Positions 2,044-60,899 of a stretch of 64,000 nt of DNA are shown piece by piece. Positions within the stretch are counted from its first letter, which is position 1; every line of letters begins with the position of its first letter. This DNA comes from a virus: the UHGV virus genome UHGV-0176771; one strand, 5' to 3'. A program made the translations under genes and the position numbers. The notes below the pieces were generated by a model. It was not told where the DNA came from and searched no databases. It worked only from the letters and a program-made list of their open reading frames with translations.

Positions 2044-2952
2044 TTGATTAAATTATTCACACACCGGGATTTAGATGGAATAGGTTGTGCGATTTTGGCG
2101 CGATTGACATTCGGTGAAAATGTAGACATTACATATTGTAATTATGATGAAGTAGATGTACTTGTAAGAGAATATATTTCTAAAATAGACAAAGGACATG
2201 ATACATGTTTTATTACAGACATTTGTATTAAGGATGATTTGGCTTCTGTGATTGATGGTAATTATAAAAATAATTTTAAATTAATTGATCATCACAAAAC
2301 AGCATTAGAACTCAATAAATATGATTGGTGTACTGTTGAAACAGAGAATAATGATACAGGTCTTATGACAAGCGGTACAGAATTATTTAGTAAATATCTG
2401 ATTGACCATAAATATTTAGATGTGGATGTAAGTGATTTTGTAAGAATTGTAACAGATTACGACACATGGAGATGGTCAACACTTGGTAAGGACGGACTCG
2501 TTTCAAAAGATGTAAATGACTTGTTGTATTTATATGGAAGAGAAAAATTTGAAACGAGGTGTATTAGATGTATTGAATCTGGCAGATTTCCTCATTTTGA
2601 CCAAGAGTCAAGTTTAATGTTGTCATTTAACAGGAATGAAATTGAAAAATATATCAAAGAAAAAGATAAGACAATTATTGTTAAGTGCAATGGAGAATAT
2701 ATGTATGGTGTTGTTTTTGCAGATAAATATATCAGTGAATTAGGTAATGAATTATGTAAATTGAATAGAGAACTTGATTATATTGCAATTGTAAATATGA
2801 GTACACGTTCAGTTTCTTATAGAACTATCAAAGATGATATTGACATGGGTATGATTGCAAAGAAATATGGAGGCGGTGGTCATCCAAAAGCAGCAGGATC
2901 AAAATTTGATGTTTATAAACTTGCAAGATTTCTTGACGAATTATTAGATTAG
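2044..2952 (+). CDS. DHH/DHHA1 family phosphoesterase (NrnA-like nanoRNase / pAp phosphatase type)
   Basis: DHH motif (LIDHHKT) and DHHA1 GGGH motif (GGGGHPKAAG) are visible. TTG start with AGGAGA RBS 8 nt upstream. Confidence 0.75.
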   Translation: MIKLFTHRDLDGIGCAILARLTFGENVDITYCNYDEVDVLVREYISKIDKGHDTCFITDICIKDDLASVIDGNYKNNFKLIDHHKTALELNKYDWCTVETENNDTGLMTSGTELFSKYLIDHKYLDVDVSDFVRIVTDYDTWRWSTLGKDGLVSKDVNDLLYLYGREKFETRCIRCIESGRFPHFDQESSLMLSFNRNEIEKYIKEKDKTIIVKCNGEYMYGVVFADKYISELGNELCKLNRELDYIAIVNMSTRSVSYRTIKDDIDMGMIAKKYGGGGHPKAAGSKFDVYKLARFLDELLD

Positions 2953-2968
2953 AGGAGAAATAAGAAAT

Positions 2969-3250
2969 ATGACGATATTAAATATTATCATGTGTCATTT
3001 GATTGGTGATTACGTTTTACAATGTGACTTTATTGCAAAGACGAAAGGTCAGAACTGGTATCACTTGTTTGTACATTGCTTTCTGTATTGTTTCCCATTT
3101 TATATTGTGTTTGGATTTACATGGCAGCTACCAATCATTTTTATTGTTCATGTAGTAACAGATGCATTAAAAGCAAGATGGAATAAAATAACTTATACTC
3201 AGGATCAAATTATACATTATGTGATTGCACTTATTTACTTGGCTTTTTGA
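2969..3250 (+). CDS. Small integral membrane protein (about 3 predicted TM helices), unknown function
   Basis: Hydrophobic ORF with RBS AGGAGAAAT upstream. Confidence 0.4.
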   Translation: MTILNIIMCHLIGDYVLQCDFIAKTKGQNWYHLFVHCFLYCFPFYIVFGFTWQLPIIFIVHVVTDALKARWNKITYTQDQIIHYVIALIYLAF

Positions 3251-3296
3251 TAGTAAAAATTGAAAGAAGCATTATTTCATAAGGAGAATAAGAAAT

Positions 3297-3653
3297 ATGA
3301 AATTAACAAGAGAAGAAGCAGTCTCAGGACATAGAAAAATGTGGAATTGGATTGCAGATTGGGTTGAAGAAAAAGAAAATAGCGATGGGATTCAATGGTT
3401 GAAGAATAAGTATTGCACACAGAATAATCTTGAATTGAGAAGCGATTGCTTTTGTTGTGAATATACGCAAAGAAATTGTAGTGCCTGTCCGATTCAATGG
3501 GGTGGTTCTCTTGAAGATTTTATGTGTATGCAAAAATATGAAGAAGATGATGACGAAGGATTGTATGCATTATGTTGTAATGAACTAGATTGGGAAGAAC
3601 AGGCAAAATTAGCAAGACAAATTGCAAATTTACCAGAAAGACAGGATTTGTAA
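3297..3653 (+). CDS. Cys-rich hypothetical protein
   Basis: ORF with AAGGAGAA RBS and multiple CxxC pairs. Confidence 0.4.
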   Translation: MKLTREEAVSGHRKMWNWIADWVEEKENSDGIQWLKNKYCTQNNLELRSDCFCCEYTQRNCSACPIQWGGSLEDFMCMQKYEEDDDEGLYALCCNELDWEEQAKLARQIANLPERQDL

Positions 3654-3654
3654 T

Positions 3655-4020
3655 ATGGATAGGCTTACATATAGAACAGAATTAGGTGTTAGTTTAGATA
3701 TAGACGATAAATGCCCTACGTGTAGTATTTGCTGGAATTGTGATATCCCAGTAAGAGAATGTGGATACATATACGATGCACTAGAAAAACTTGCAGAATA
3801 TGAAGATACAAAATTGACACTTGAGCAGATACGGAACCTGAAGGAGCGTGATACAGCGAAGAAACCAAGTATCGAGGGAGACGGGTATGCTCCAGATGGA
3901 ACATTTATATGGGATACATGGATCTGTCCAAACTGTAATGAACATTATGAAATTGATTATGATGAATATGATTTTTGTCCGAAATGTGGACAAAGAATTG
4001 ACAGGAGGGAATTAGAATAA
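3655..4020 (+). CDS. Zinc-ribbon hypothetical protein (several CxxC pairs)
   Basis: Longest ORF begins at 3622 but overlaps the upstream gene. ATG at 3655 directly follows the upstream stop. Confidence 0.35.
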   Translation: MDRLTYRTELGVSLDIDDKCPTCSICWNCDIPVRECGYIYDALEKLAEYEDTKLTLEQIRNLKERDTAKKPSIEGDGYAPDGTFIWDTWICPNCNEHYEIDYDEYDFCPKCGQRIDRRELE

Positions 4021-4565: not shown

Positions 4566-5774
4566 ATGAATTTTGAAATGACAGGAAGACTTAGCATCTC
4601 GAAGGAAACAGAGAAGTTTAAACCATGGGAAGAGAAAACTTATGATTCTGGATGGGTGAAACGACGGTTACTATTTAATGTTACCTGTGGAGATAATAGA
4701 CACATGTTGGCTGTAGATGATGGTTCATTTTCAGACGGACATGGTGATGTGTACACATTTAGTAAAGCAACAATTGATGAATCTGGAAATAAAAAGAAAG
4801 GTGAATCAATGATTATTCCATTTAAAGAGAGACTTACTTCTCCGAAGATTGCAGAGGTAGCAGAATTTAAAAAATATATTTTCGATCTTGAGAAACCAGG
4901 AAGAAGATATGGACTTGAGAAAGCTTCTGAAAGACTTAAAGAAGGAAGAAATTTAACAGATGAAGAACTGAAAGATTTGGGTCTTGAGAATGAATCAGAA
5001 GTTACAGAAGCACTCGAAAAGAGTAAAAAGAAACGCCATGAGTTTATCACAAAATGGGATTATGCAGAGTTTATTAAAAAAGTAATCGATAGTGGAAAGT
5101 ATTCAGATGCAAAATTCTTTATTCGTGGAAATGGAGAGTATTCTTACTCTGAAAACAACGAAAGAGTATATGAATCATATGTTCCTACCCGTATTTATCT
5201 TGCCGCAGACGATGCAGAGGAGAGTTCAACTGCTACCGTAAACATTCTGTTTAATAGTGAGAGTCTTGACACAATGAGTGCAGACGAGAAGAAGAAATAT
5301 TACGTAAATGGATGGATGATGGAATACGACAATAACAGAAGAGGTAATATCCCGGTTCCGGTTACTGTGACAATCCCACTTCCGGGAGACGACGCGGATC
5401 AGAAAGCAAAACGTAGAGTAGAGTCGCTGAAACATAAATTTGCAGTAGACGATGAATCTATCAAAGAGTACGGAGTCGTAGTGAATATGTTGAACGGCGC
5501 ACAGAAAACAGAAATCACAGAGGATATGCTTACAGATGAACAGAGAGATGATCTTGAATGTGGTCTTATTACAATGGATGATATTAGGGCTGAACTTGGA
5601 GGAAGTGTTTATGGTGAACGAATTCGTGAATATGAATTTGTTAAACCTGCAAGAGGATTTACAAAAGGAAGACAGGATACTGTTTACACAGTAGAAGACA
5701 TGGTTATCAGACCAATCGAAGAAACTCTTCCAGAAGGAACCGAAGACTTATTCGATGATGATGATGATCTTTAA
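4566..5774 (+). CDS. Putative ssDNA-binding or recombination-associated protein with acidic C-terminal tail (DLFDDDDDL)
   Basis: Strong RBS AAAGGAGA. Acidic C-terminus is typical of phage SSBs. Sits immediately upstream of the Sak4-like ATPase. Fold not verified. Confidence 0.3.
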   Translation: MNFEMTGRLSISKETEKFKPWEEKTYDSGWVKRRLLFNVTCGDNRHMLAVDDGSFSDGHGDVYTFSKATIDESGNKKKGESMIIPFKERLTSPKIAEVAEFKKYIFDLEKPGRRYGLEKASERLKEGRNLTDEELKDLGLENESEVTEALEKSKKKRHEFITKWDYAEFIKKVIDSGKYSDAKFFIRGNGEYSYSENNERVYESYVPTRIYLAADDAEESSTATVNILFNSESLDTMSADEKKKYYVNGWMMEYDNNRRGNIPVPVTVTIPLPGDDADQKAKRRVESLKHKFAVDDESIKEYGVVVNMLNGAQKTEITEDMLTDEQRDDLECGLITMDDIRAELGGSVYGERIREYEFVKPARGFTKGRQDTVYTVEDMVIRPIEETLPEGTEDLFDDDDDL

Positions 5775-5849
5775 AATGGAGGGTTAATTACCCTCTATAC
5801 AACTTAAAACAAAACACAAATACATTGAATACAATTGGAGGAATTAAAT

Positions 5850-7001
5850 ATGGCATTTGTAAAACCAGTAATTAATGAAATTAAACCGGATATTAAAAAC
5901 TTATCGATTTATCTTAGAAGTACAAAAAAGTTTGGAAAATCTACGCTTTTTAGAGATGTAGTCCTTGCAAAATATGGAGATCCATCAAGAGGTCTTCTGG
6001 TAGGATGTGGCAATGAGGTTGGATATAAGATGTTGGACAACCTGAATGTAACCCAGGTTAATACATATAAAGATATGATTGAATTGCAGAAGTGGCTTAT
6101 TGAAGAAAAAGGAAGAGAACATCACATTGAAATGATTGCTTTTGACACTGGGGACGAGCTTGCCCTCCTCGCAGACGCTGAAACGATCCGTCAGAGCAAT
6201 ATTGAAAACCCAAGTAAAAAATGTAAATCAATTAAGGCTGCATTTGGAGGTTATACTGCAGGAGAAAAATATTCAGCAAATGATTTGATTAAACCGTACA
6301 TGGCTAAATTGCAGGATGCAGGCTTTGGAGTATGGGTGATTGCTCATACTAAATTTAAAACAATCAAGGAAAAAGGTGGATTAGATGAGGACGGTTACAT
6401 GCAGTTATCTTCAAACATGGGTGCAGATTATGAAGCTGCATTTGGAGATATCTTTGATGTAACACTCACAGGTGTTATTGATCGTGATTTAGAAGAGAAA
6501 AAAGTTGGAGATAAAACGAAGAAATATGCAACTGATGAAGTTAGAAAGTTGTATTTTAGAGGAACAACTCTGATTGATGCTGGCGGTCGTTTTGCTGATG
6601 GGGCGGTTCCTGAATATCTTGTATTTGATAAACCAAATATGGCAGAAGATTTTATTAGAACAGTAGAAGAGGGTATGGAGAAATCAAAAACATCAATGAA
6701 GAAATCTCCTTCAAAATCTGTTGAACGAGTAAAAGAGAAACCTGTGGTTAAAGTGCAGGAGGAATCAGTAGTTGAAAATGATGACGATATTTTTGATGAA
6801 GATGTTGTAAAAGAAACAGCAGTTGAGACAGTATCGGTATCTGAATATCCGGAAAACTTGGATGCTGTAATTAGAAAGATGTTCAAAGAATGTACAGATT
6901 CAGATTTAAAAGCATCTGTGAGAGAAGTCATTTCTGAGTATGGAAAATTGAATGATGTCGATAGAGAGGGACTTGAGAAAATTTACGACATGATGAAATA
7001 G
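5850..7001 (+). CDS. RecA-fold ATPase of Sak4/AAA_24 type (phage recombination protein), C-terminal acidic extension
   Basis: Degenerate P-loop (KKFGKSTL), Walker-B-like IEMIAFDTGDE and VWVIAHTK segment. GGAGGA RBS before ATG 5850. Confidence 0.45.
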   Translation: MAFVKPVINEIKPDIKNLSIYLRSTKKFGKSTLFRDVVLAKYGDPSRGLLVGCGNEVGYKMLDNLNVTQVNTYKDMIELQKWLIEEKGREHHIEMIAFDTGDELALLADAETIRQSNIENPSKKCKSIKAAFGGYTAGEKYSANDLIKPYMAKLQDAGFGVWVIAHTKFKTIKEKGGLDEDGYMQLSSNMGADYEAAFGDIFDVTLTGVIDRDLEEKKVGDKTKKYATDEVRKLYFRGTTLIDAGGRFADGAVPEYLVFDKPNMAEDFIRTVEEGMEKSKTSMKKSPSKSVERVKEKPVVKVQEESVVENDDDIFDEDVVKETAVETVSVSEYPENLDAVIRKMFKECTDSDLKASVREVISEYGKLNDVDREGLEKIYDMMK

Positions 7002-26552: not shown

Positions 26553-26897
26553 ATGCGTAAAAAAAATTACAAGGGTCGATGTGAGAAGAGGACAATATCG
26601 AAAAGTAAAGATGTGTGCAGATTCTACGATCCAATTCAATCGAGTTTTGCAGAAATTCTTAACGCAGATCCAGACATTGAGGAAATTCGTTGCAATGTAG
26701 TTTTAGATGGAAAAGACACAGGCGAATATATGACAGATTTTCTTTGTATTAAAACAAACGGAGATATGCTTGTCCGTGAATGTGTCTATCGAAAATTTCT
26801 CACAAAACCTATGACAGTCAAATTCTTAGACATTAGCAAAGATTATTGGTTGAGACACGGTATTGAAGATTGGGGTGTTGTAATTGATGCAGAATAA
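26553..26897 (+). CDS. tnsA: TnsA-like endonuclease (short form; E, D and K catalytic residues recognisable)
   Basis: SSFAEILNADPDIEEIR and TDFLCIK ... ECVYRK align by eye to the Tn7 TnsA catalytic region (E63, D114, Q130/K132). AAGGAG RBS before ATG 26553. The longer ORF from 26496 begins inside the repeats. Confidence 0.5.
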   Translation: MRKKNYKGRCEKRTISKSKDVCRFYDPIQSSFAEILNADPDIEEIRCNVVLDGKDTGEYMTDFLCIKTNGDMLVRECVYRKFLTKPMTVKFLDISKDYWLRHGIEDWGVVIDAE

Positions 26898-28716
26898 TTA
26901 TTTATTAAAAAACAATGACGATATTATTCGAGTTTTGGATGTGCAGCATGGACAGTCTTTAATCATAGATTGCATTAAACTGTCTATGCCAAAGTGGATT
27001 CTTAACAATCAGATAGATTCATTTGTGCCCTTTTCTGAAAATGATTTGTCTGAAATAACAGGCATATACACACAAGATATGGAAGATTTTTCATCTAACA
27101 GTAGAAAATTTATTCATGAACATTTCTCATTAATTGCAAGTATTCTGCCATATATATCTGAACCACAGAAAAGAAATGAAGCCATAAATACTATTTCGGA
27201 AGAGAGAGGCGTCTCAAAAACAACTATAAGAAAATACTTATGTTTGTATTTAGCGTATCAAGATATGTCTGTATTCGCACCAAAAAAGAAAAATCGAAAA
27301 TTAGAACTGTCTACAGATGAAAAGAATATGAGATGGGCGTTAAATAAATTTTACTATACTAGGAAGAAAAATACTCTTAATACAGCTTATACAATGCTTT
27401 TAAAAGAAAAATACTGTGATACAAATGGAAAGTTATTGACACATCATCCATCATTTTATCAGTTCCGGTATTTTTATCGCAAGACAAAAAAACTGCAAAC
27501 CTATTATATCTCAAGAAATGGGATAAAAAATTACCAGAGGAATAACAGACCGTTGATAGGAGATGGTGTACAACAATTTGCTCCAAATGTAGGGATTGGG
27601 ATGTTGGACGCAACAGTATGTGATATATATTTGGTTGATAATTCAGGAAATCTAGTTGGAAGACCAATATTAACCACATGTATAGATGCGTATAGCAGCC
27701 TGTGTTGTGGATATGCATTAACATGGGAAGGTGGAATATATAGTCTAAAAAACTTGATGCTAAATATCATTACAGACAAAGTAGAATTGTGCAAGAAACA
27801 TGGAATTATTATAAGTAAGCAAGAATGGAATATTGATCAGGTTCCCGGAGTGATGATTACAGATAAGGGTAGCGAATATAAATCAGAAGTATTTGAACAA
27901 TTAACTGAACTTGGGATTACAATAACAAATTTGCCACCATATAGACCAGAATTAAAAGGTTCTGTAGAGAAGTTTTTTGATTTAGTACAAGGATACTACA
28001 AAGAATATTTAAAAGGTAAAGGAGTAGTTAATCCAGACTTTCAAGAGCGTGGATGTCATGACTATAGAAAAGACGCCTGCCTGACATTAGAAGACTTTGA
28101 AAAGATAATATTGCGTTGTATATTGTATTATAATTCACAACGCATTTTAAAGAATTTTCCATACACAGAAGATATGATAAAAAATAATATTCAACCATAT
28201 GCAAATACAATATTTGAATATGGCAAAAAACGTATCGGAGCAAACTTAATATCTGTAAGTTCTAAAAATATAATTTATTCAATGCTTCCGAGAATAACAG
28301 GGAAATTTTCGCGTCGTGGTTTGATTGTAAATAAAATGAGATATCACTGTGATGGATATACGGAAGAATATTTAAACGGCGATTATGTAAAAGTGGCATA
28401 TGATTCAAATGACGTTACCACAGTATGGGCTATTTTGAACGGTGAATATGTTCCGTTTAATATTATTGAAAATAGGTTCAATGGAATGGATATTACAGAA
28501 ACAGATGCATTGCTGCAAGAACAAAAAAGGTTGGTGGCAAAAGAAGAATATAATAACATGCAGTCGAAAATTGATTTGGCTAAATATATAGAGACGATTG
28601 CTAATAATGTATGTCGAAAGCAAGATACAAAAATTAAAAATGTTAAACAAACAAGGAAAAGAGAAACGTATCGCACACACATTGACCATATAAACGGAGG
28701 AGTCGATTATGAGTAA
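26884..28716 (+). CDS. tnsB: TnsB-like DDE transposase (Mu/Tn7 family)
   Basis: DDE triad context (LDATVCD, MITDKGSEY, KGSVEKFF). N-terminal HTH-like region. 610 aa. Confidence 0.85.
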   Translation: MMQNNYLLKNNDDIIRVLDVQHGQSLIIDCIKLSMPKWILNNQIDSFVPFSENDLSEITGIYTQDMEDFSSNSRKFIHEHFSLIASILPYISEPQKRNEAINTISEERGVSKTTIRKYLCLYLAYQDMSVFAPKKKNRKLELSTDEKNMRWALNKFYYTRKKNTLNTAYTMLLKEKYCDTNGKLLTHHPSFYQFRYFYRKTKKLQTYYISRNGIKNYQRNNRPLIGDGVQQFAPNVGIGMLDATVCDIYLVDNSGNLVGRPILTTCIDAYSSLCCGYALTWEGGIYSLKNLMLNIITDKVELCKKHGIIISKQEWNIDQVPGVMITDKGSEYKSEVFEQLTELGITITNLPPYRPELKGSVEKFFDLVQGYYKEYLKGKGVVNPDFQERGCHDYRKDACLTLEDFEKIILRCILYYNSQRILKNFPYTEDMIKNNIQPYANTIFEYGKKRIGANLISVSSKNIIYSMLPRITGKFSRRGLIVNKMRYHCDGYTEEYLNGDYVKVAYDSNDVTTVWAILNGEYVPFNIIENRFNGMDITETDALLQEQKRLVAKEEYNNMQSKIDLAKYIETIANNVCRKQDTKIKNVKQTRKRETYRTHIDHINGGVDYE

Positions 28717-29959
28717 AACTACGGAATCAATTTATAATTTACCACCTATTTTATCAGGAGAACGACTGATTTCGTCTTTGACTGTATTGCCAGAATATGA
28801 GCCATCAATTATTCATAAAAGCGAAACAGAACGTTTAATGGCGCTGTCAGATATATATAGAATATATATACCATCAAAAATGTCCCAAGAGATATATAGC
28901 AAATTGTATCTTTCATTAATGCGTTCATTGCAGAAGAAAAGGACAGATCCATTTGTTATGCAACAGCAACAAAACAATTTTAGAATGATTCAAAAGAAGT
29001 TTTATAATGGTGGAATTATAGGTGGGTCAGATTCTTTTTCTATTATTGGTAATTCTGGAATAGGGAAAAGTGCATCTATATTTAGAGCAATTGATTTAAT
29101 AACAGACAGTACAGTCATAGAGTTTGAAAATCCATATGCAAAGGTAATACCGTCTCTGGTGGTGCAATGCCCCTTTGACTCTTCTGTAAAAGGACTTCTA
29201 TTGGAAATATTAAGAAAAGCTGATGAACTTCTTGGCTCAAAATACTATGAAAATGCGATCAAAATAAAGGCTACAACAGATACATTAATAGGTTGTGTCA
29301 GTCAAATTGCCTTGAACAATATCGGATTGTTAATTGTCGATGAAATACAAAATATATGTAATTCAAAAAATGGCAAAACTTTAGTTGGTAGTATAACGCA
29401 ACTGGTCAATAATTCCGGTATAAGTATTTGCTTTGTAGGAACTCCGGAATGTAAAAATTTTTTTGACAAAGCAATGCATCTTGCAAGGAGAACAATGGGG
29501 TTAGAATATACGTCTCTTGACTTTGATGTTGAATTTACCATGTTTTGTAAAATTATTTTTCAGTATCAGTACATGGAAGAAAGAATTGAAATTACTGATA
29601 AGATTATTAAATGGCTATACGACCACTCGTCTGGGAATGTTTCTATTGTTATAGCGCTTCTACATGACGCACAGGAGATAGGCATTCTGTCCGGACATAA
29701 ATCATTAAGTATTGATCTTTTTGAAATAGCATATAAACAAAGAATGTCTGTTTTACACGATTATATAAATATTCCAGACAAACAAAAATTAAAGCTGTGC
29801 AGTAAAAAAGATAAGCAAATTATCGAACGAGATAGTACAAAAGAAATAAACGATAATTTAAAAATATCTGATATTGTACAGGAATCGAAACAAAACAATA
29901 TTAATATTGTTTTATTGCTGAAAAAATACAATTTAATCGCCGAGGAGATATCGCTATGA
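28709..29959 (+). CDS. tnsC: TnsC-like AAA+ ATPase
   Basis: Walker A GNSGIGKS and Walker B LLIVDEIQ. Position after tnsB. Confidence 0.8.
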   Translation: MSKTTESIYNLPPILSGERLISSLTVLPEYEPSIIHKSETERLMALSDIYRIYIPSKMSQEIYSKLYLSLMRSLQKKRTDPFVMQQQQNNFRMIQKKFYNGGIIGGSDSFSIIGNSGIGKSASIFRAIDLITDSTVIEFENPYAKVIPSLVVQCPFDSSVKGLLLEILRKADELLGSKYYENAIKIKATTDTLIGCVSQIALNNIGLLIVDEIQNICNSKNGKTLVGSITQLVNNSGISICFVGTPECKNFFDKAMHLARRTMGLEYTSLDFDVEFTMFCKIIFQYQYMEERIEITDKIIKWLYDHSSGNVSIVIALLHDAQEIGILSGHKSLSIDLFEIAYKQRMSVLHDYINIPDKQKLKLCSKKDKQIIERDSTKEINDNLKISDIVQESKQNNINIVLLLKKYNLIAEEISL

Positions 29960-31566
29960 TTGCTTATGTGCCAACAATGTATCCAGATGAAACTGTGTAT
30001 AGCTTACTTACAAGAATATATGAAAAAAGTGGATATCTATCATATGCTCATGCAAAAAATGATTTTTTTGTTAATCCAAAAGAGGGAATTGAATTTTTGT
30101 TCTTAAATAAGTTAAGCAAAGAACTCATAGATATTATCACTCGGAATCAAACGCTAGATGACGTAATAAAGAATCACACGCTATATAATTATTATGGAAG
30201 ATATCTTGGAGTTGAAAAAAGAAAAGATGCATACAATTCTCTGTGCAACATGACAGGAGATTATTTCCGTATTTTCGTATTAAATAAAAAATCTTCAGAG
30301 GAAACTTATCTCCGTTATTGTCCCATGTGCGTAAGTGAAGATAAACATATTTATGGGGAAACATATTGGAAACGTACACATCAAATACCAGAATTAGAAG
30401 TGTGTCCTGTCCATGGGTGCAAATTATTAAATAGTAATGTTTCAAATAATAAACATAGGGCTATGTCATTTATCTCTGCAAATACAGCCGTGAAAGACTT
30501 AACCATAATTCAAGGATCAGAACAAGATATAAAACTGGCAGAATATATAGGTGCTTCAGTGTGCGAAAATATAGAATACAATGACGATTTATTGATCGGT
30601 AAATATCTCACATCCAAGTTGGAAGGTACAAAATATTTATCATCATGTGGGAATGGAATCAATCGAAAATTATTATTTCAGGACTTAACAAATTTTTATA
30701 GTGGGTGTAAATATGTAATTCAAGAAATAAATCATTTATCTAAGATTTTTCATGGGAAAAGAACAAAGCCTTTTGAAATTATTCAGATTGCTATGTTTTT
30801 AAAAATCCCATGTAATGAATTAGCTAACGCACAGAATCCAGACAAGACTCCATCAGAAAAATTTGAGCAAAAGGTTATTAACATGCTCCGGGACAAAACA
30901 ATGGAAGAGGTGTCTTCTAAATTAAATATTTCAAAATCCGCCATTAAAATTATTATACGAAAACATAACGGAGTAGCAGATAATTACACAAAATACGAAA
31001 TACAAGAATGTAGGAAAATATGGACTGATACCATAAAAGAATATCCAAACTGTTCTTTTCAAGAGATTTGTATGTACTCTAAATATAGATTAAGTTTACA
31101 ATGGTTAAGAAGAAACGATAAAGAATGGACAGACAAACATTATCCACGTAAACAAATAAATTCTGTCAGGCAACAAAATATCGACTTATTAGACAAAAAA
31201 TATCTGTCACAAATTGAAAATGTAATTCAAGAGTATAGGGAGCGCCAAGGTGAAATGCCAAAACGAATAACGATAAACGCAATTAGCAACTATATTGGTA
31301 TCCCTGGTAGACAATTATATTATATGAAACAATGCAGAGCTGTTATAGAAAAATATGCAGAAACAGACGAGGAATTTCGAGTCAGAAAAATATTATGGGC
31401 TGTTGATATGTTACAAAGAGATAATAAGAAGTTGACTTTCAATCAGATAAGAAAACTGACACATATTCATTCAGGGCACTATTACAAATGTCGTCCTCTT
31501 CTTGTAGATACGATAGGGGAGGAAACAGTTCTTCGTATTGATCCAAATACTTCTATTGTGAGTTAA
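29956..31566 (+). CDS. tnsD: TnsD/TniQ-like target-site selector
   Basis: TniQ-type N-terminus (PDETVYSLLTRI) and zinc-finger CPMCV ... CPVHGC. Position after tnsC. Confidence 0.7.
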   Translation: MIAYVPTMYPDETVYSLLTRIYEKSGYLSYAHAKNDFFVNPKEGIEFLFLNKLSKELIDIITRNQTLDDVIKNHTLYNYYGRYLGVEKRKDAYNSLCNMTGDYFRIFVLNKKSSEETYLRYCPMCVSEDKHIYGETYWKRTHQIPELEVCPVHGCKLLNSNVSNNKHRAMSFISANTAVKDLTIIQGSEQDIKLAEYIGASVCENIEYNDDLLIGKYLTSKLEGTKYLSSCGNGINRKLLFQDLTNFYSGCKYVIQEINHLSKIFHGKRTKPFEIIQIAMFLKIPCNELANAQNPDKTPSEKFEQKVINMLRDKTMEEVSSKLNISKSAIKIIIRKHNGVADNYTKYEIQECRKIWTDTIKEYPNCSFQEICMYSKYRLSLQWLRRNDKEWTDKHYPRKQINSVRQQNIDLLDKKYLSQIENVIQEYRERQGEMPKRITINAISNYIGIPGRQLYYMKQCRAVIEKYAETDEEFRVRKILWAVDMLQRDNKKLTFNQIRKLTHIHSGHYYKCRPLLVDTIGEETVLRIDPNTSIVS

Positions 31567-51782: not shown

Positions 51783-52856
51783 TTAGATCAGTGCTCCTTT
51801 CCTTGGCTCCAAGTAAGAAATATTTAAAGTTACATTTCCAAACACTCTAAAAGTGTTATGTCCATGAATCAACCGCACCCAGTAAATATTGTCTTCCGCT
51901 TGAATACCAACACGTTCAAATACTACTGGTCTATCAAGTTCATCATAGAATGCTAAATTTTTACAATCCAATTTCAATTCCAAGTCACGCTGAGTCTGGC
52001 AGTAGAAAAATCCGCCCTGAAAAATATAATACTGCCCGTTTTCAATATAGTACGCGCCATACTTATTCTTCACTCCGTAAGAATCAGTAAGATAGAATAG
52101 GATAGCAGTATTATTGCATACAGATACCACATGACTATCTTTGTCATATACATATTCAAGAGTACACCCATTCATTTTTGCGTAATTTTCAATTTTATTC
52201 ATCAATAATTGTAACGTCAATTTGTTTGTGGATTGTAATGAGATTGTGCCAGATTCAAGTGTTTTACTGTCTGACAGATTATGGATATAGATTTGTTCTG
52301 TTGCTTTGGGATAAATATTAATAACTGGATATACATATCCGTATTTGTCGCTGCTTGTATTTTGCAACATAAAGTTTTTACTACGTGTAATGATTTGTTG
52401 ATCTTGTTTTTCTACATAAGAAAATGGCGAATTGCATGTGAATGTACATCGTAAACCGTAACAAATTCCCCAATTCTCATATGGAGTGACAGAAGAGAAG
52501 TAGCCTTTTACTTTTACAATCTCGTCCTGTTGTGTTGTAATTTTTAACCATCTATGTTCTTGAGGTGATGTGAGCCATGAAACTGTCTCCTCGTATTCTT
52601 CTGTAGATAATTCTAATTCTTCCTGAGATGTATTTACCTCGTAATCTTTTGTGATGTGTATTTCAAATACAAGTGTTTCTGTATATGTTGTTCCGAATCC
52701 AGTCACCTCTGGTCGATATTTATTCATTGTAGTAGATTCCATTTCTCTCACAATAGACGATGGAAGAGAAGTATCGTCATCAAAATTAACAGAAGAAAGA
52801 TTCTGTTGCTTCAATGTTTGCTCATCAAATTCAAAATCTTTACATACTAGAATCAT
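51783..52856 (-). CDS. Distal tail protein (Dit-like)
   Basis: Size and position between tape measure and Tal. Confidence 0.4.
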   Translation of the reverse strand: MILVCKDFEFDEQTLKQQNLSSVNFDDDTSLPSSIVREMESTTMNKYRPEVTGFGTTYTETLVFEIHITKDYEVNTSQEELELSTEEYEETVSWLTSPQEHRWLKITTQQDEIVKVKGYFSSVTPYENWGICYGLRCTFTCNSPFSYVEKQDQQIITRSKNFMLQNTSSDKYGYVYPVINIYPKATEQIYIHNLSDSKTLESGTISLQSTNKLTLQLLMNKIENYAKMNGCTLEYVYDKDSHVVSVCNNTAILFYLTDSYGVKNKYGAYYIENGQYYIFQGGFFYCQTQRDLELKLDCKNLAFYDELDRPVVFERVGIQAEDNIYWVRLIHGHNTFRVFGNVTLNISYLEPRKGALI

Positions 52857-52887
52857 ATAAATTCACCTCAACTTTCTTAAATTTTTA

Positions 52888-52921
52888 TATCAAAAAAGGA
52901 GCTGAGAAAATTCTCAACTCC
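52888..52921 (-). terminator. Intrinsic terminator (stem GGAGTTGAGAA/TTCTCAGCTCC then TTTTTTGATAT on the - strand) immediately upstream of the Dit start
   Basis: Hairpin with one mismatch plus a 6-T run. Confidence 0.5.
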
Positions 52922-52959
52922 TTGTGTATTCGTTATTTATAAAGGGCAGGAATATTCGT

Positions 52960-52988
52960 TTGACAGAATATTCCAAATTATTTATAAT
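52960..52988 (+). promoter_or_regulatory. Perfect-consensus sigma70-type promoter TTGACA-17-TATAAT on the + strand; 9-bp inverted repeat GGAATATTC/GAATATTCC flanks the -35 (52949-52974)
   Basis: Hexamers and spacing read directly from the sequence. Confidence 0.5.
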
Positions 52989-53121
52989 GTAGGTTAGAGA
53001 ACAGAATCAAACATTTTTATTCCAGGCTAGATAGAGATGGTAGGCGGTTTGAGTCACGTCTGGATGGTGACATCTAGTTTATCGTATAGATACCCTTGCT
53101 AAGAAAGGAGGGTGATACAAC

Positions 53122-53223
53122 GTGATAATTTGCGAACTTATTGCAGACATTGTGATTGGAGTCATTTCCTCTTACATAGTCAAGTTTATCGATAAGAAAC
53201 GCAAAAATAACCGCCATGAGTAA
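53122..53223 (+). CDS. 33-aa hydrophobic peptide with basic C-terminus (MIICELIADIVIGVISSYIVKFIDKKRKNNRHE); type-I-toxin-like
   Basis: AAGGAGGGTGA RBS 7 nt upstream of a GTG start. Lies 126 nt downstream of the consensus promoter. A 9-bp perfect inverted repeat spans the stop codon. Confidence 0.3.
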   Translation: MIICELIADIVIGVISSYIVKFIDKKRKNNRHE

Positions 53224-53255
53224 AGCGGTTATTCTTGCTAATTGTTTAGTTTATT
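53206..53255 (+). terminator. Hairpin AATAACCGC/GCGGTTATT overlapping the peptide stop codon, followed by T-rich tract
   Basis: Read from the sequence. Confidence 0.3.
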
Positions 53256-53436
53256 AGCCTTAATTCCACTAAAGGCTCAACCGTCTATAGGATTCTGGTC
53301 TCTTTTATTTTGCACACATCAATGTGCATTCATTCAACCTATAGATAAAACCGCATTAACGGCTTCTTACTTTCTTTTATACTCACCTATTATAGCTTAT
53401 TTTACTCGAAAAGTAAATATAAAACAAATATAATTG

Positions 53437-53515
53437 CAATGTTTCTTTGTTGCACATCGCAAAGCATATTTTAAATAACAAACAATGTTTAATGGCACAT
53501 TGCGAAACCAAATAT
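53437..53515. repeat. Two 33-bp imperfect direct repeats (CAATGTTTCTTTGTTGCACATCGCAAAGCATAT and CAATGTTTAATGGCACATTGCGAAACCAAATAT) near a perfect palindrome TGCACACATCAATGTGCA at 53311-53328
   Basis: Read from the sequence. Confidence 0.5.
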
Positions 53516-53978
53516 AATTTGAACCCCAGCCTTTTATTAGCCACATACTGGGTAGCGGAAATAATTTAACCCCGTACCTTCTTTTTGACTGCTGATATAT
53601 ACGGTCACAGCAAATAATAGAATAGAAGAGTCACTGGTGATGACCTTTCTATTCATTTAAGGACTTTCTTTCAGAACATAGTTCCTAGTTAGGCTATGGG
53701 AAATCCTCGCACCTTTGTAAATCTCCATGTAAACCGGTTCCTAACCCGGCGTACACTTCAAAGATTATTTATAGCAGTCATATTACGCTGCATCACACCA
53801 GATTTTACTTAATTAGACAGCGTCCTGATAAAGCAGGCTATTCTATGGTAGTTTATCGTCCCCCAATAGAGAAAGTGAGCCGTCTCTTTCACTTTTACTT
53901 TTGGATATCCAAGGCATCTCTCCTATATTCATATTCTCTTAATCACAAGCGGCAGGATAATAAATCCCACCGCTTATT

Positions 53979-56900
53979 TTAAAATGATCTGTGTACACCA
54001 GCTCTTTTGGCTTCTTTGGTAAATTCCTTTGTGACTCCTTCAATTACTTTCTTCATGCCAGGATAGGTTTCCTTGTCAATACTTCCTTGAACTTCTATCA
54101 TCTTGTCATAGTAATTATTTGTTACATTAGGTCTTTCACCAAGGCTGTTTGCAATGTTCAGTGAACTATAAATATCATCTTTGTGTTCACCAAGATCCAT
54201 AATGTTCTTTGACAGTCTTGCATTTACAACAGCATCACCATAAGTAATTGTCGTAGCTGTTCCTGTCAATGCACCACGCCTAACCATCATTTCAGGATTG
54301 TTTCCTTCATTGATACGAACAATTTCTGAACCATTTACAAATTTCTTTGTTCCAGACGCATAACCTCTTAACTGGTCAAGACTTACCCAACCAAGGTCAC
54401 GCTCTCCGAAACGAGGTGTTCTACTAATATGATATTTCTTCTGTGCCCAATTAGCATTATTAACACTGGTAATATATACTTCCTGACCACGCATTTCATT
54501 TCCAGCAGGGGACTGACCGTCAGAAGAGTAGTAGTAATCTCCACTTGCGAATATTACTTTGTCTCCAACATTTGGTACTCCGTCTCCGCCACCATTATTA
54601 CTCGGTGGTGGTGTAGTTGGTTTTGGTGGTTCTGGTTTTGGTGTGACAGTTACTGCACAACTATTTGTTGAAGTAGCTCCTCCACCATCTGTTGCAATTG
54701 CACTAATGGTAGTGCTACCTGCTTTGACAGCATGAACAGTTCCATTTGCAACTGTAGCAACATTTGGATTTGATGACACCCACTGCAAGCTTTTATTTTT
54801 TGCATCATTTGGTCTGATTGTTGCCGAAACTGTGCCTGTAGAACCTTCCTGTATAGAAAGTGTCCCCGGACTTAATGTAATTTCTGCAACTGGTCTGTTT
54901 GATAAGTCTGGATTCTTACTGATATCACCTTGAATCTGGTCATTCTTATCCTGTGTTGTTCCGTTCTGAATCTGACCGGTATTCACATCCGTCCAATCAT
55001 CCGGTCTATAATTAGGAGCATTAGTCATACTATTGTCAACTTGATCTTGTGCTCCATTACTTGTACCAAGATTTCCAAGATTATTGGATAAATCTTTATT
55101 CGGTACAAATCCTGTACTGTTAATGATTTGCTGAATTTTGTCATAAGCCTGTTGGTAGTTTCCAACAATATTTCCAAGCATTTGAGATATTACTTGTTCC
55201 TGCTTTTCAGCATTTCGAGTAACATCATATAATGTTTCCTCCAGCTGCTTATCGAGATCCTCACTCAAACCGTCCAGACCATTCTGGTGAACATCATATT
55301 CATGGTCATCACGGGTGTCTTGCATTTCTTCTTCGGCATCTCTAAGTTGTGCTTTTAACCTCTTTAATTCAGCCTGTGCACTCGCATTATTCGTGCCTTC
55401 GAGTGCAGCAATCTGAGCTTTCAATGTATTCACATCTCTAGCCTGTTTACGCAGAGTCTTATTGTAATCAGCATTTTTCTTTTTGATATCCAATAATTCC
55501 TTCTGCTTATCAATCGATTTTTGAGCAACTTCATTCTCTTGCTCAAGCATCTTTGTATACAGATCAACAATAGAATCTTTGTAGTCTTCTACAATATTAA
55601 CAGAGCTTGAAATCTGATTGAGAAATTCTTTTTGCTGCTCCTTATATTCACTTGTTGAGATATTCCCGTTCTTTAAATCCTCATCAAGCTTCTTCAATGC
55701 CTCTTGATAATTCTTAATCTGTTGTTTCGCAGCATTCATACCCTGACTAATCAAAGCCAAATTTGCAATACCATCAAGTGTTAATCCACCATTTTTCCCA
55801 ACAAAAGCATCACTATTTAAAAGTCCTCTTAAATCATCTGTCTGGTCAATCAGATCACCTAATGCCTCCTGTCCATCAAAGAACGGTTGCCATCTTACTT
55901 CCCAGATTTTATTTTTGAGGTCTTCAATATTATTCATTGCATCAAAGATAGCGTCATCGAGCTTTTCCATCTCTTCCGCATATTCATTATATTTGTCAGA
56001 ACCGACATCATATTTTGCCTGATCTCGTAATAGCTCTTGTCTCTTATTATAATTCGCTTGAATCTGTGCATTGGCATTATCAAGTTGCGCCTGTAAATCT
56101 TTTTCAGATATTTGTTCGCCTTTTGACTCTGTAAGGTCTGTGTTGTTCTCAAGACGTTTTGCAGTTCTGTCTAATTCATCGATTGCCTGTTGCAATTTCA
56201 ATAAATCAAGTTCTCTTAGTTGGTCTTGCAATTCGATCAATGTTGTTTCAGCTTCAGCAGCTTCTTGTCTGAATCCGTTTAATGCAGCTTGAGCTTCAAA
56301 CCATTCCGTTGAGTATTCAGCCATATACCCATTTGCCATGAGTTTATTGATTTCATCTTGATATGATTTAATCTGTGACTGTAATTTACCTGCAACATCC
56401 TGTTGATTTTTAATAGATTCTTGCAGAGAGCCATACATATTGTCGGAATATGCAGATTCTCCTTTTGCAGCCGCTAGTTCACGTAATGCTTCCTGATAAT
56501 CTACAGCAGAGGACTCAATTCCAGTCATCATATCGATGTAATCTTCAATATTATCCAATGCTGTCTGCGCCAGTTCACTCTGTTTGTTTAAGAGGTCATC
56601 GTACTGTTTATTACAGTCTACGAGCTTATCATAATAAGACTGTAGCTCACTGATTATTTTTTGAGTATCATCATCGTATTTTGAAATATCCATAGACCCG
56701 TTCTGAATCTGATGGACGATAAGTGGGTTTATTCCACTCTGTCGCACAATAGAATCAAAATGACTTTGATAAGTCCCAATTGCTTGCTGAGTCCTATTCA
56801 GTAGTTCACTGTTCTTAGACATTGCCTCATACAGTTTCTGTTGCTTATCTGGGAGGTGTGCGATACGCTCCATTTGACTCATCAATAAATCATACTGTGA

Positions 56901-59900
56901 TTCTAGCCGTTGAAATAACACCTCAACCCAGTCTGTATATCCAGATACTGCTTCTGATAATTTCTCTGCCGCTTCGGATGTATCAGATGCTGCTCTTGAA
57001 AGGTTATTTGATGCGGAGTTAAGATTGTTGGAAGTAGAAGAGTTCCCAATTCCAGAAATTCCTGATTGACTTCCAGATCCTCCAATGCCAAAACTTCCGC
57101 CACCACTTCCATTTGCAAAAGCAGTTCCAGAAGCGTAAGCTCCACCCATGAAAACTTTGGCACGAGAATTTACATATCCTTTAGAAAGTAGATCTCGTGT
57201 CTGAAGGTGGTTGAAGATTATGTCTCCACGTTTTAGATTTACGAATTCTGCACCATTGTCTCCAATGGTTGTGAATTTTCCTCCGCGTACAAGAAGTTCT
57301 GTTCCTAGTTCACCAACCAAAGCACGCTCATCTTTTTTTACACCCCAATCACCTTGGTCAAATGCGTGACCAGATTTAGGATTTACAGTTCCATCTGCAT
57401 GAGCAGTTCCGTTAAAACGCGGCATCATCAGTCTGCCATTTCCTACGTTTGTACCAGTACTTACTGTTTCAACTCTATGTGTATAAATATAAGTATGTGC
57501 AGCACTTCCGTCTAAACCTGACAGCATTCCACTTACTCCAGAAATTACCGGTGTAGCATGATCGCTAGCCTCGATATTTGTATTTGATTCATCAGGGATA
57601 CTTTCGACACTTCCAGTTACATTTTCTGCCGTTAATGAAGCAGAAGCATCTGTTGCAGTAATAACAGCTGTCTTTTGTTCCGGTGTTAAAGAATTCCAAA
57701 GACCAATCACATATGTAGCTTGATCTTGTGCAGTCATTGATGTAAATTTCGGATTTGCGCTCAAACCGTTCCATAAAGTAATAATGCCTGTTGCATGGTC
57801 TTCTCCGATTAATGGAACAGATTTTTGTATGAGTTCTTTCTTATTAATATCATCAATTACAGGAGTAGCGTTATCTACGGCATCTAAATGTACAGGTACG
57901 CCAGGAAGGTTAAGACCGTGTATTGCCTTTTCCATTACGAACTGAAGATCATTATCTACTTCATAAGCAATTGTTCCATCCGCAGTTATAACAGGCTTCA
58001 ATGCTTTTTCTACACCATCTATCTCAGCAGTATAAGTAACTGTTCCGTCTTCATCCTTAACGGCTTTAACTACAGACTCAACATTAGAAACATCTGCATT
58101 GTATTTAATAGTCTGATTTGCTTGAAGATTATTTAATGCTGTGTTCATTTCTTCTGTAGAATTGAATGTTTTAACTTCAATTTCCGGTGAAAGATTCTTT
58201 ATATCTTCGAGCACTTCTTCTTTGTTTTTTACTTTTAGTTCTGCATCAAGTTCAATGCCGTTTTCTTGTGCTAATTGACGAATTTGATCTTCCATCAAGC
58301 TAACCACTTCGTCTGTGTTTTCCCCATAGGCATTTTCTCTGAGAATCCTATCACGTTCTTCTTTTAAACTACTAATTGCTGTTTTTGCCTGTTCAACTTG
58401 TTTTGCATAATCATCTGCAGATTTTGTTATGAGTTGACCAAGATTAGCTTGGGTTTGCTGTAAGTCAGATTCAAGTCCTTTAATCTTTTCGCGCTGCTGA
58501 TCGATTGCTGTACTGTCTGCCCCAGTTGCTTCGAGCCTCGCCAATTCCGCTTTCGCATTCACGAGTTCTGTGCTTAAGTCAGATACACGTTTTGCACCCT
58601 GTTCAACAGAACCGACAAAGTTATTACTGAAGCCATAATCTTCAAGACGACCAAACATGTCCATAAAAAATTCAAAACCTACGCCCATATTTGTCGCAGC
58701 TTGCTCTAAATCTTCTATATTATATGTCCATTGCTCTGTTCCGTCAGCAACTGTCTTAAATGCCATTCCTTTGCTTTCAAGATCAGTTAAGAAATTATGT
58801 ACGCCAGATGCATCTTCTGTCAGATAGCGAGCAGCCTTAGCGTAATTTTCAGCAAAGTTTACAGCATCTTCTGCACCAGTAGGAGAGAAGTAGGCGGCTC
58901 TCTTTTTAAAGTCGTCGGTTCCGATCAACCCTTTATCAAACATTTCTTTTGCTTGCTCAAGATATGATTTTGCCTGAACATAGTCATCACCGGCATTTTT
59001 AGTTTCGTCAGCAGCACTAATTGCTTCGAAATTTTTATTTGCTTCTAAGTTAATACCAGTCGAAGCAAGTGCTTTTGCATTTTGGATCTCAGATTTTAGT
59101 TGGTTAAATGTGCCCGTAAATTTATCATTTACAACTAAGTCATAACCTTTTTCCAAATCTTCTAATGACAAATCTTTTGCTGCATCGCCATACAGTTCTG
59201 TTAGCTTTGCTAGTTGATCTTCAGACTCTTCAATTACTTTGTCAAAACCAAGAGATTTTTTGAACGCCTTTTGTGCTTTGCTATCATTAGGAAATGCTTT
59301 TTCAAGAGCTGTGTCAATTGTCGATATGTATTCTCCAACATTCAACATAGATGTATCCAGAGTCAACATATCTTTAATTGCCTTTTGTCCTTCTGGTTTC
59401 ATATCTGCCATAGGCTGAATAATTTCGCCATACATGAAAGACATAAAGTCACCACCATAGTCTTTAGCCACGGTTTCGTAATCAATATTATCAACATTAC
59501 CTAAGAATGCATCTTGAATTGATTTATCTAATTTTGTAAAAGTATCTGAAGTTTGCAGATACTGTCCGAGTGACTCTCCCATTTTAGACCATTGTTCTTC
59601 GATAAGAAGTTTTGTTGCAGCTATACTTTTTTCTGCTTCTGCATTTTCAACAGTCATTGAATTTATGGCTTCACTTTTATATTTTGACAGTGTATTTTTT
59701 ATCTCATTTGCAACATTTTTATCGAATCCTGATGTTGATATTGTCACATTGCCTGCATCATCAATAGCCTCTTGCATTGCAACGCCATTATCACTTAAAA
59801 TTTTTGCGATTTCTCTCTGAGCTTTCGCCCTATTTTCTCCATATGATTTTAAGCCTAATGTTATATCACCAGAAGAAGATAATTCGTCAGCATCAATTTC

Positions 59901-60899
59901 CATATCTGCCATCGCTTTATCATTTTTGTCAATGGTATTTTGTAGAGTTTTAATTTTGTCTTCATATTCCTCGATTTGAGCAACTGTGCCTTCGTAATTA
60001 TCCTGCAGACCTTCTCCAATCTTAACATTAGCAGATAGCATCTGCGCGTCATATAAACTCTTCAGACTTGCTGCAGCAGAATCTGCATTGCTACCAAGAT
60101 TAAGAATAGCATTTCCTTGTGCGTCATAACCTTCTACGAGAGATGGGAACTGTGACGCTAACTGATTACTAATATCCAGATACTGTTGATATTCCTCAGA
60201 AGACAGTCCTTTGTTTTTATTCGTTACAGTATCTACATTCTTGCTTAATTCACTGTATTTCTTTGCGACATTCTCTATCGCATCACCTGTCGTTTCAATA
60301 TCATCTGCATTATCTGCAAATGACTGACCAAGTGTGTCCAGAGTATTCTTGCCTTTAGAGAACTCAGCAAATGTCTCATCGATAGAGCTTTTCGCTTCTT
60401 TTCCTTTGGCAATCATTTTTTCTTGACGATGAATGTAGTCATCAATCATAGTAATAACGCCTTGAATCGCTACACCGGCAAGCATACCGATACCTGCGTT
60501 TAAAAGACTTGAACCGATCATTCCTCCTACGTTTTTAAGAGTAGAAGTTACTTTACCAAATTTTGATGTGGATTTAGAAGCTGACTCGATATGCGTATCC
60601 ATATCTTTAATGTTCTTCTTCCCAGAATCAACGTCACCTAAAAATGTAATAAGTTCTTTGTCTGCGTATCCCATAGATTTTGCCCAATCAACCCATTTCT
60701 CAGGTTGATTATCGCCTAATCCTGAAATAACTTTATTTGCTTTTAAAAACTCTTCACTTATTTGTGGAGTTTTATTTTTGTATGCATCAAATAAGCTGAA
60801 CCCAGTATCCTTATCATAGTTGAAAACCGTATAGTTTTGATGTACACTTATATTAAATACTTGCAATATTTTATATAAGGAAGAAAAATATGAGTTCAA
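53979..60899 (-). CDS. Tail tape-measure protein (2306 aa; coiled-coil rich, internal TM segment, Big_2 Ig-like domain, Gly-rich tracts)
   Basis: Size, heptad-rich composition, position upstream of Dit and Tal. True start may be internal. Confidence 0.55.

Follow-up and report, generated by a model that had tools for sequence, protein, structure and literature searches.

Which elements occupy the 1.1-kb gap between two tail genes of a virus, and what could they do there? The gap lies in UHGV virus genome UHGV-0176771, of which we analysed one stretch of 64,000 nucleotides (nt), hereafter the window. Positions 52857-53978, hereafter the island, are bounded by a tape-measure open reading frame (ORF; 53979-60899, minus strand) and a gene for a tail protein, called Dit below (51783-52856, minus strand). 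We found on the minus strand of the island one copy of the drum RNA (Rfam RF02958) followed by two CptI-type repeat arrays, all related to RNAs that precede toxin genes in sister phages, and on the plus strand a small module laid out like a type I toxin-antitoxin system. The identity and homology of these parts, the linkage of drum to genes of the PBECR4 family and the absence of the toxin genes can be read directly from the sequences compared here. For the view that the gap between tape-measure and Dit is an accessory hotspot, with an array of orphan RNA antitoxins on the minus strand and a type I-like module on the plus strand, we consider the balance to be about even.

A more specific proposal is advanced tentatively. 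Drum could be the RNA antitoxin of an unrecognised type III-like toxin-antitoxin family, in which PBECR4, a predicted RNase of the BECR fold, is the toxin. Sister phages would carry PBECR4 and CptIN cassettes as cargo of a group I intron in the tape-measure gene, and the intron-less window phage would have stacked three toxin-less RNAs into a multivalent immunity array, protective in co-infection or on toxin-carrying hosts.

The drum RNA and its linkage to PBECR4

Drum is the sole Rfam family that exceeds its gathering score in the whole window. Together with the elements adjoining it, it occupies the following positions:

53802..53831, minus strand: candidate array promoter, TTATCA-18-TAAAAT, 9/12 matches
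53767..53803, minus strand: conserved 5' extension of drum, hairpin GCAGCG..CUGC, 100% identical to toxin-linked copies and outside the Rfam model
53656..53766, minus strand: drum RNA (RF02958), 111 nt, 64.7 bits against a gathering score of 43, model positions 1-112 of 112
53620..53654, minus strand: drum terminator hairpin, stem intact (-15.1 kcal/mol), tail degraded to CUAUUAUUUG

The window drum is 98% identical to a copy that stands upstream of PBECR4 in the related contig L003, and the changes between the two are limited to unpaired positions and one base of the terminator stem. In a six-copy alignment, compensatory changes affect 13 of the 48 pairs in the drum helices, and the terminator covaries as well. 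Directly 5' of every drum copy examined we observed a hairpin, AUGCAGCG...GACUGCUA (window 53767-53803, minus strand; L003 2631-2667; also L019, L023, L025 and L060). Given this conserved element, the functional drum RNA may be longer than the Rfam model.

In their text on the drum motif, Weinberg et al. (2017, PMC5737381) mention terminators at its 3' end and, for a protein gene nearby, a "compelling association". The window copy is likewise full-length and over the gathering score; its helices are those expected, and a terminator-type hairpin comes after it, but it has no partner gene, its terminator lacks a U-tract, and it carries the extra 5' hairpin outside the model. Neither a ribosome-binding site nor a PBECR4 ORF follows its terminator.

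In our sample the partner of drum was always PBECR4 (PF18813), immediately downstream and on the same strand. All 27 distinct PBECR4 loci (each contig counted once) have a drum upstream on the same strand, and they comprise six protein clusters with 47-99% identity in varied genomic settings. Five cassettes were followed base by base: the drum lies 44-55 nt upstream of PBECR4, and an intrinsic terminator and a ribosome-binding site come after it. No constant protein partner beside PBECR4 was found in the loci examined. When viral contigs were scanned by pattern for this drum subfamily, 15 were found, 12 of which have PBECR4 immediately downstream; the three without it belong to the window lineage only. 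In the literature covered, the text of Weinberg et al. included, we found no paper that ties drum to PBECR4 or to a toxin-antitoxin function.

Two CptI-type arrays behind the drum

Two repeat arrays continue the minus-strand series:

53521..53620, minus strand: CptI-type antitoxin array A, units R1 (53620..53568) and R2 (53567..53521), each fitting an H-type pseudoknot with an A-rich loop
53436..53507, minus strand: CptI-type array B (Fusobacteriales-1 type), two hairpin repeats against three in the related contig L015

Array A is homologous to arrays that stand upstream of CptN toxins in four other contigs (L008, L013, L032 and L034) and holds every position that is invariant among these toxin-linked copies; no toxin follows the copy in the window. 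In each of the five sequences the 18 pairs of a double H-type pseudoknot can all form, but the model covers only these five, and 29 of 500 shuffles score as high. One stem of the window array carries the compensatory change ACTG/CAGT to GCTG/CAGC, and the model contains two compensatory changes overall. Array B aligns with the Fusobacteriales-1 RNA of L015, relative to which its stems show changes from A-U to G-C and from A-U to G-U. The first "hairpin" of the window's match to Fusobacteriales-1 is in fact unit R2 of array A.

A type III locus consists of a promoter, an RNA, a terminator and a toxin, in this order (review PMC5086642), and the CptIN-type arrays of the relatives likewise stand after a promoter and before a terminator and a CptN-family toxin. 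The repeats in the window agree with the published account of CptI (CptIN family; E. rectale CptIN, PDB 4RMO; PMC5086642): they are ~47-53 nt long, fit H-type pseudoknots and have an A-rich second loop. Unlike this family, the window has the antitoxin RNAs only, with neither terminator nor toxin, and two unrelated arrays and a drum are fused head to tail. No terminator was found after array A or array B in the window, whereas one is present in L008, L013, L015, L032 and L034.

Fusobacteriales-1 (RF02920) is listed by Rfam as cis-regulatory. At L015 3098-3216 a three-repeat array of this RNA is followed by a terminator and a CptN-like toxin, and from this layout we conclude that Fusobacteriales-1 is a type III antitoxin array of the CptI type.

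Toxin-type cassettes as cargo of a probable group I-like intron in sister phages

The same RNAs are found with toxin genes inside the tape-measure genes of related phages. In contigs of the L003 type, the alignment to the window tape-measure gene is interrupted precisely after codon 1836 and takes up again at codon 1837, 1463 nt further on and in another frame; tape-measure similarity at this break reaches past the called ORF boundaries. Insertions at the same codon are present in L007, L008, L011, L012 and L015. Their conserved 5' and 3' ends and their core segments recur in a second insertion of L008 (codon 1422/1423), which is a group I intron according to Rfam (55.1 bits). The codon-1836 insertions are not called group I introns by Rfam; we read them as a group I-like intron with variable cargo, on the basis of their exon-precise boundaries and the core segments in common with the Rfam-positive L008 intron. 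The insertions and their cargo are as follows:

L003 2124-3586; L008 870-2019 and 3262-~4460; L011 2419-3747; L012 ~2044-3759; L015 2671-~3900: tape-measure insertions, the site corresponding to window 55391/55392
L003 type: promoter, leader hairpin, drum, strong terminator, ribosome-binding site and a PBECR4 gene of 199 amino acids (aa; PF18813, E=1e-20; L003 2833-3432)
L015: promoter, three Fusobacteriales-1 repeats (77.5 bits), terminator and a 167-aa ORF (3269-3772)
L008 first intron, and intergenic gap of L013: two ~50-nt RNA units, terminator and a CptIN-toxin ORF (L008 1394-1885)
L011: small upstream ORF overlapping a GNAT gene, in a type II toxin-antitoxin-like layout
L007 and L008: MazF-like gene
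L012: 413-aa zinc-ribbon/CapR protein

The toxin ORFs of L008 and L013 score above the NCBIfam cutoff for CptIN toxins (165 and 153 bits against 90). For the 167-aa ORF of L015, hits were obtained to the CptN toxin 4RMO (E=5e-8) and, below the cutoff, to the CptIN model of NCBIfam (E=5e-17); the NF047359 scores of the relatives' ORFs are 165, 153 and 62 bits. The RNA-toxin pair of L008 and L013 also occurs in two unrelated viral contigs, L032 and L034, with toxins that are close homologues. PADLOC returned a single weak match among the cargo proteins of the relatives, PD-T4-4_A on the L013 ORF (E=0.0024, 14.9 bits). The MazF/PemK-like ORF of L007 and L008 (3583-4113) has an N-terminal extension of ~35-57 aa, and no recognisable antitoxin ORF or repeat RNA stands upstream of it.

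The cargo place of a group I intron is normally taken by a homing endonuclease. Judged by the sequences of its cargo, the slot described here is occupied by toxin-antitoxin modules and not by homing endonucleases.

Absence of the toxins and mosaic structure of the island

No ORF or fragment of PBECR4, CptN or the CptN-like protein was found by tblastn in the window, and none of the three was found in contigs of the same lineage of 107 kb and 120 kb. Within the limits of these data, the three RNAs thus stand without a toxin.

The island is a mosaic of segments that recur elsewhere. Drum and its flanks (53621-53803) are 98% identical to a segment of L003-L006, L009, L017 and L018, whose distance from Dit is 3.2 kb greater; 53514-53618 has its counterpart in L008 and L013; a segment within the Fusobacteriales-1 match resembles L015; and 52951-53301 matches L013-L015. 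The junctions between these segments coincide with module ends. On a larger scale, a block of 3.4 kb (~52000-55400), which spans the N-terminal part of Dit, the island and the C-terminal part of the tape-measure gene, is 99.5-100% identical to L002 and L010, while its flanks reach only 75-95%. Within the tape-measure gene the block ends at the intron insertion site, which would fit an exchange of exon 2 and the hotspot as one unit.

In L007 and L008 only ~125 nt separate the tape-measure gene from Dit, and this space holds a terminator alone. The earlier note on this DNA, which was made from the window sequence, had proposed that a Dit directly abutting the tape-measure gene in relatives would mark the region as a simple junk insertion. 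The comparison gave neither outcome that the note foresaw: the gap is a hotspot of variable cargo, relatives carry other cargo in it, and the same RNAs are found elsewhere joined to toxin genes.

A type I-like module on the plus strand

The plus-strand half of the island comprises the following elements:

52949-52974, plus strand: 9-bp palindrome that brackets the -35 hexamer, arms GGAATATTC/GAATATTCC
52960-52988, plus strand: sigma-70-type promoter, perfect TTGACA-17-TATAAT, the only one in 64 kb with 0.09 expected by chance
52995..53312, plus strand: predicted toxin mRNA, ~310 nt, fold z-score -5.8
53122-53223, plus strand: 33-aa ORF, candidate type I toxin, GTG start, Shine-Dalgarno sequence AAGGAGG, encoding VIICELIADIVIGVISSYIVKFIDKKRKNNRHE
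53201..53238, both strands: shared hairpin of the converging transcripts, 15-bp stem, scoring as a minus-strand terminator and overlapping the stop codon of the 33-aa ORF
~53382..53195, minus strand: candidate antisense RNA (type I antitoxin), predicted, ~180 nt, ending at the shared terminator
53389..53417, minus strand: convergent antisense promoter, TTTACT-17-TATAAT, 10/12 matches (11/12 at the corresponding position of L014)

Several of these elements had been recognised in the earlier note, and the perfect promoter antisense to the tail genes, the inverted repeat around its -35 hexamer and a hairpin near 53206-53233 (now extended to 53201-53238) were all recovered. The note had also called the island non-coding: a long ORF is indeed missing (none exceeds 63 aa), but the 33-aa ORF is preceded by a strong Shine-Dalgarno sequence and recurs, conserved, in relatives. 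Its suggestion of a type I toxin-antitoxin locus fits the plus-strand part (52949-53420) and does not extend to the minus-strand half, which is of another kind.

The 33-aa peptide consists of a hydrophobic helix and a basic tail, KKRKNNRHE. In L013-L015 its frame, start codon and Shine-Dalgarno sequence are kept and the replacements are conservative, with about as many synonymous as non-synonymous codon changes. The 127-nt 5' untranslated region (UTR) is 91-96% identical to these relatives and the ORF 87-89%. In the predicted fold of the mRNA, the Shine-Dalgarno sequence is paired with an anti-Shine-Dalgarno sequence, ACCCUU, and the two ends of the molecule are brought together by two long-range helices (52996-53008 with 53291-53303, and ~53041-53055 with 53274-53288), in which one pair shows a compensatory change. 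The module was found in six viral contigs only and in none of the GTDB representative genomes.

Type I modules are known from mobile elements of Firmicutes, for example par/Fst of pAD1, txpA/RatA and prophage systems of C. difficile. The module in the window resembles them in its peptide, which is short and has a hydrophobic helix and a basic tail, and in its strong promoter; further common traits are a long, structured 5' UTR in which the Shine-Dalgarno sequence is hidden, a convergent antisense promoter and a common bidirectional terminator. It differs from them in that no family model matches at its cutoff and in that both the antisense RNA and the toxicity of the peptide are predictions. 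Direct repeats that would give the antisense RNA complementarity to the toxin 5' UTR, as in par, were not convincingly found; an 11-mer in common with 53849-53859 is within chance. We therefore assign the module to type I by its layout only and to no described family, with a candidate toxin and a predicted antisense RNA.

Other contents were observed around this site in relatives. In L011, L012 and L016 (~5400-5800, on the strand opposite to Dit) another small hydrophobic and basic ORF (MDLALQDLYYIVGIFSLSINISYTVYKFVKDKRHEK...) takes the position of the 33-aa ORF, which suggests that small toxin-like genes are swapped as cassettes at one site. The plus-strand promoter and palindrome (window 52860-53017) are ~90% conserved in L003 (5841-5997) and L009, where the small ORF is missing and the promoter points antisense into a gene for a 198-aa DUF6338 membrane protein.

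Tail-gene context of the island

The genes and terminator-like structures on either side of these modules are:

53979-60899, minus strand: tape-measure ORF, 2306 aa, phrog_4211 match, Big_2 domain near the C-terminus
53947-53975, both strands: hairpin right after the tape-measure stop, kept at 87-90% after the tape-measure gene in relatives
52896..52923, minus strand: strong intrinsic terminator, 12-bp stem followed by TTTTTGATATA, ~40 nt upstream of the Dit start codon
51783-52856, minus strand: tail protein ("Dit"), with the N- and C-terminal domains of Pfam DUF6558

The DUF6558 domains make the label Dit plausible. Read 5' to 3' on the minus strand, the tape-measure stop (53979) is followed by the hairpin, ~135 nt unique to the lineage, the weak promoter (53831..53802), the drum 5' hairpin, drum, the degraded terminator stem, units R1 and R2 of array A, array B (53507..53436), an AT-rich spacer and the shared terminator (53238..53201). 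Terminator-like sites are overrepresented in the region (4 observed against 0.6 expected). The longest ORF in the island measures at most 63 aa, and its GC content of 0.355 lies between that of the tape-measure gene (0.378) and that of Dit (0.339), with 0.341 for the whole window; the visibly higher GC content that the earlier note had ascribed to the island was not borne out.

Both outer hairpins of that note exist. On the minus strand a U-tract is missing from the one at 53947-53975, which is therefore no canonical terminator of tape-measure transcription; in the plus-strand direction, ATTTTAAAAT comes after it. The strong minus-strand terminator upstream of the Dit start was confirmed at 52923..52896. 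We observed an intrinsic terminator ~40 nt upstream of Dit in all relatives, with a clade-specific sequence: its position is conserved and its sequence is not, as in L013-L015, in which the terminator (5930-5956) stands in the same place with another sequence. It follows from this conserved position that expression of Dit must rely on read-through, antitermination or RNA processing.

Searches for the origin of the phage gave few direct links. Among INPHARED phages, neither DNA nor proteins matched the island, its 14-kb flank or Dit, and since GTDB representative genomes contain no match to Dit or to the toxin 5' UTR, the host was not directly identified. The same Dit is encoded, at 75-97% identity, in 18 IMG/VR loci on phage contigs of up to ~166 kb. 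The family consists of uncultured human-gut phages of ~160 kb that probably infect Clostridia, and a DnaE comparison and an anaerobic NrdD point to Clostridia phages of the human gut. No tRNA or tmRNA was found. Elsewhere in the window, at 26884-31566 (plus strand), a 610-aa ORF without a Pfam match is succeeded by ORFs that carry TniB/AAA_22 and TniQ/TnsD domains, which suggests a Tn7-like transposition module within the phage genome.

Discussion

If the minus-strand array is functional, it would be transcribed with the tape-measure gene or just after it, and its RNAs would bind and neutralise cognate RNases, with drum acting on PBECR4 and the repeats on toxins of the CptN family. Such toxins could be supplied by co-infecting sister phages, through their intron cassettes, or by type III systems of the host, and the array would thereby serve as a multivalent orphan-antitoxin or immunity array, by analogy with the pseudo-ToxI of phage TE. 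The orphan RNAs in the array are probably immunity or decoy RNAs. We infer a neutralising array because three unrelated RNA modules are complete and in the same orientation while their three toxins are cleanly lost, and because there are precedents in pseudo-ToxI (PMC5086642) and in the demonstration for abiF (PMC12373285).

Phage TE escapes ToxIN by means of a pseudo-ToxI RNA (Blower et al. 2012, as summarised in PMC5086642). Both cases concern a phage-borne, antitoxin-like RNA without a toxin, and pseudo-ToxI neutralises a type III toxin that is made by another element. According to this summary, pseudo-ToxI arose in laboratory escape mutants against a single system, whereas the window represents a natural phage with three toxin-less RNAs whose cognate toxins are found in sister phages; a function is here suggested by analogy only. 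In the AbiF/RCd22 pair of a C. difficile prophage, experiments have demonstrated that a structured, non-ToxI-like RNA encoded upstream of a toxic protein neutralises this protein by direct binding (PMC12373285). This provides a precedent for reading drum and PBECR4 in the same manner, although that system has another RNA motif and another protein family (Abi_2, HEPN-like), and drum-PBECR4 is known here from sequence alone.

Several observations weigh against the proposal of a neutralising array. The promoter ahead of drum is weak (9/12), which leaves read-through from the tape-measure gene as the alternative source of transcription, and the promoter and leader hairpin common to the toxin-linked cassettes are absent from the window. 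The drum terminator ends in CUAUUAUUUG, compared with UUUUU in the toxin-linked copies. The Fusobacteriales-1 match (53562..53436) reaches 37.6 bits against a gathering score of 52.1, and array B retains two of three repeats and has lost its own terminator. The arrangement of a drum and a terminator ahead of an ORF would equally suit a cis-acting attenuator. On the plus strand, the 33-aa ORF stays below the cutoff of every type I model (CD_typeI_toxin of C. difficile, E=0.011, 16.1 bits against 60; Ldr_toxin, E=0.21). The orphan arrangement occurs in a single lineage only. Finally, the 99.9% identity of the island among contigs was considered as a sign of selection and rejected, as the island is part of the recently exchanged 3.4-kb block.

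The main and serious rival is one that we regard as possible, though less likely than not: the island would be debris of cassette turnover, in which RNA halves survive since loss of the toxin first is the sole viable order of decay, so that the RNAs have no current function and only the small-ORF module on the plus strand works. Debris would agree with the mosaic nature of both the gap and the intron slot, in which cargo differs between relatives and modules occupy varied positions, and with the missing cassette promoter and leader, U-tract, third repeat and array B terminator; the confinement of the orphan state to one lineage fits it too, and the exchanged block accounts for the high conservation of the island. 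Yet each of the three RNA modules is kept essentially whole and in the same orientation, and not one fragment of a toxin ORF is left. All base pairs of drum and array A are intact, with differences that are either compensatory or unpaired, and the junctions fall exactly at module ends.

It is unlikely that the minus-strand structures act in cis on the tail operon, through processing, stability or attenuation, and so uncouple the tape-measure gene from Dit and the tail genes downstream. The elements do lie on the tail-gene strand between two late genes, expression of Dit needs read-through of the terminator-type hairpins at 53238..53201 and 52923..52896, and the terminator directly upstream of Dit keeps its position in relatives despite sequence change. 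However, the other 24 drum-bearing contigs examined have their drum joined to PBECR4 rather than to tail genes, some of them outside tail operons, and CptI arrays also travel with CptN toxins. The ~125-nt gap of L007 and L008, with its terminator alone, means that tail genes can be expressed without any need for these RNAs, and no evidence emerged for the control of late tail-gene expression by RNA that the earlier note had suggested. That note had also considered a ROOL- or GOLLD-type RNA and a secondary origin. A single large non-coding RNA of this type, or a replication origin, might be expected from an ORF-poor stretch of 1.1 kb with many hairpins, but is highly improbable: neither ROOL (RF03087) nor GOLLD (RF01998) was matched, whether over the whole window at the gathering threshold or within the island at E<=10, the island consists of separate modules of independent ancestry that lie at various places in relatives, and there is neither an iteron-like repeat family nor a switch in GC skew. 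The structured RNA that the note anticipated thus exists, on the minus strand, in the form of the small known motif drum and of two repeat arrays of the type III antitoxin kind, and the Rfam search it had proposed retrieved one family over the gathering score, which is neither ROOL nor GOLLD.

Implications

The minus-strand half of the island is a new arrangement of known kinds of elements. Even if the array were debris, our comparison maps a recombination hotspot and re-annotates the "cis-regulatory" Fusobacteriales-1 of Rfam as a CptI antitoxin. The cassettes in the tape-measure genes of sister phages suggest, moreover, that a group I intron can serve as a carrier of toxin-antitoxin modules. 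Since 2017, drum has stood as a widespread motif whose function is unexplained, and its linkage to PBECR4 provides a first testable role, which is both concrete and cheap to address. If the proposed function is true, three toxin-less antitoxin RNAs in a row would represent the first multivalent RNA-based counter-defence or inter-phage immunity in the wild, for which single pseudo-ToxI escape mutants from the laboratory have so far been the only example.

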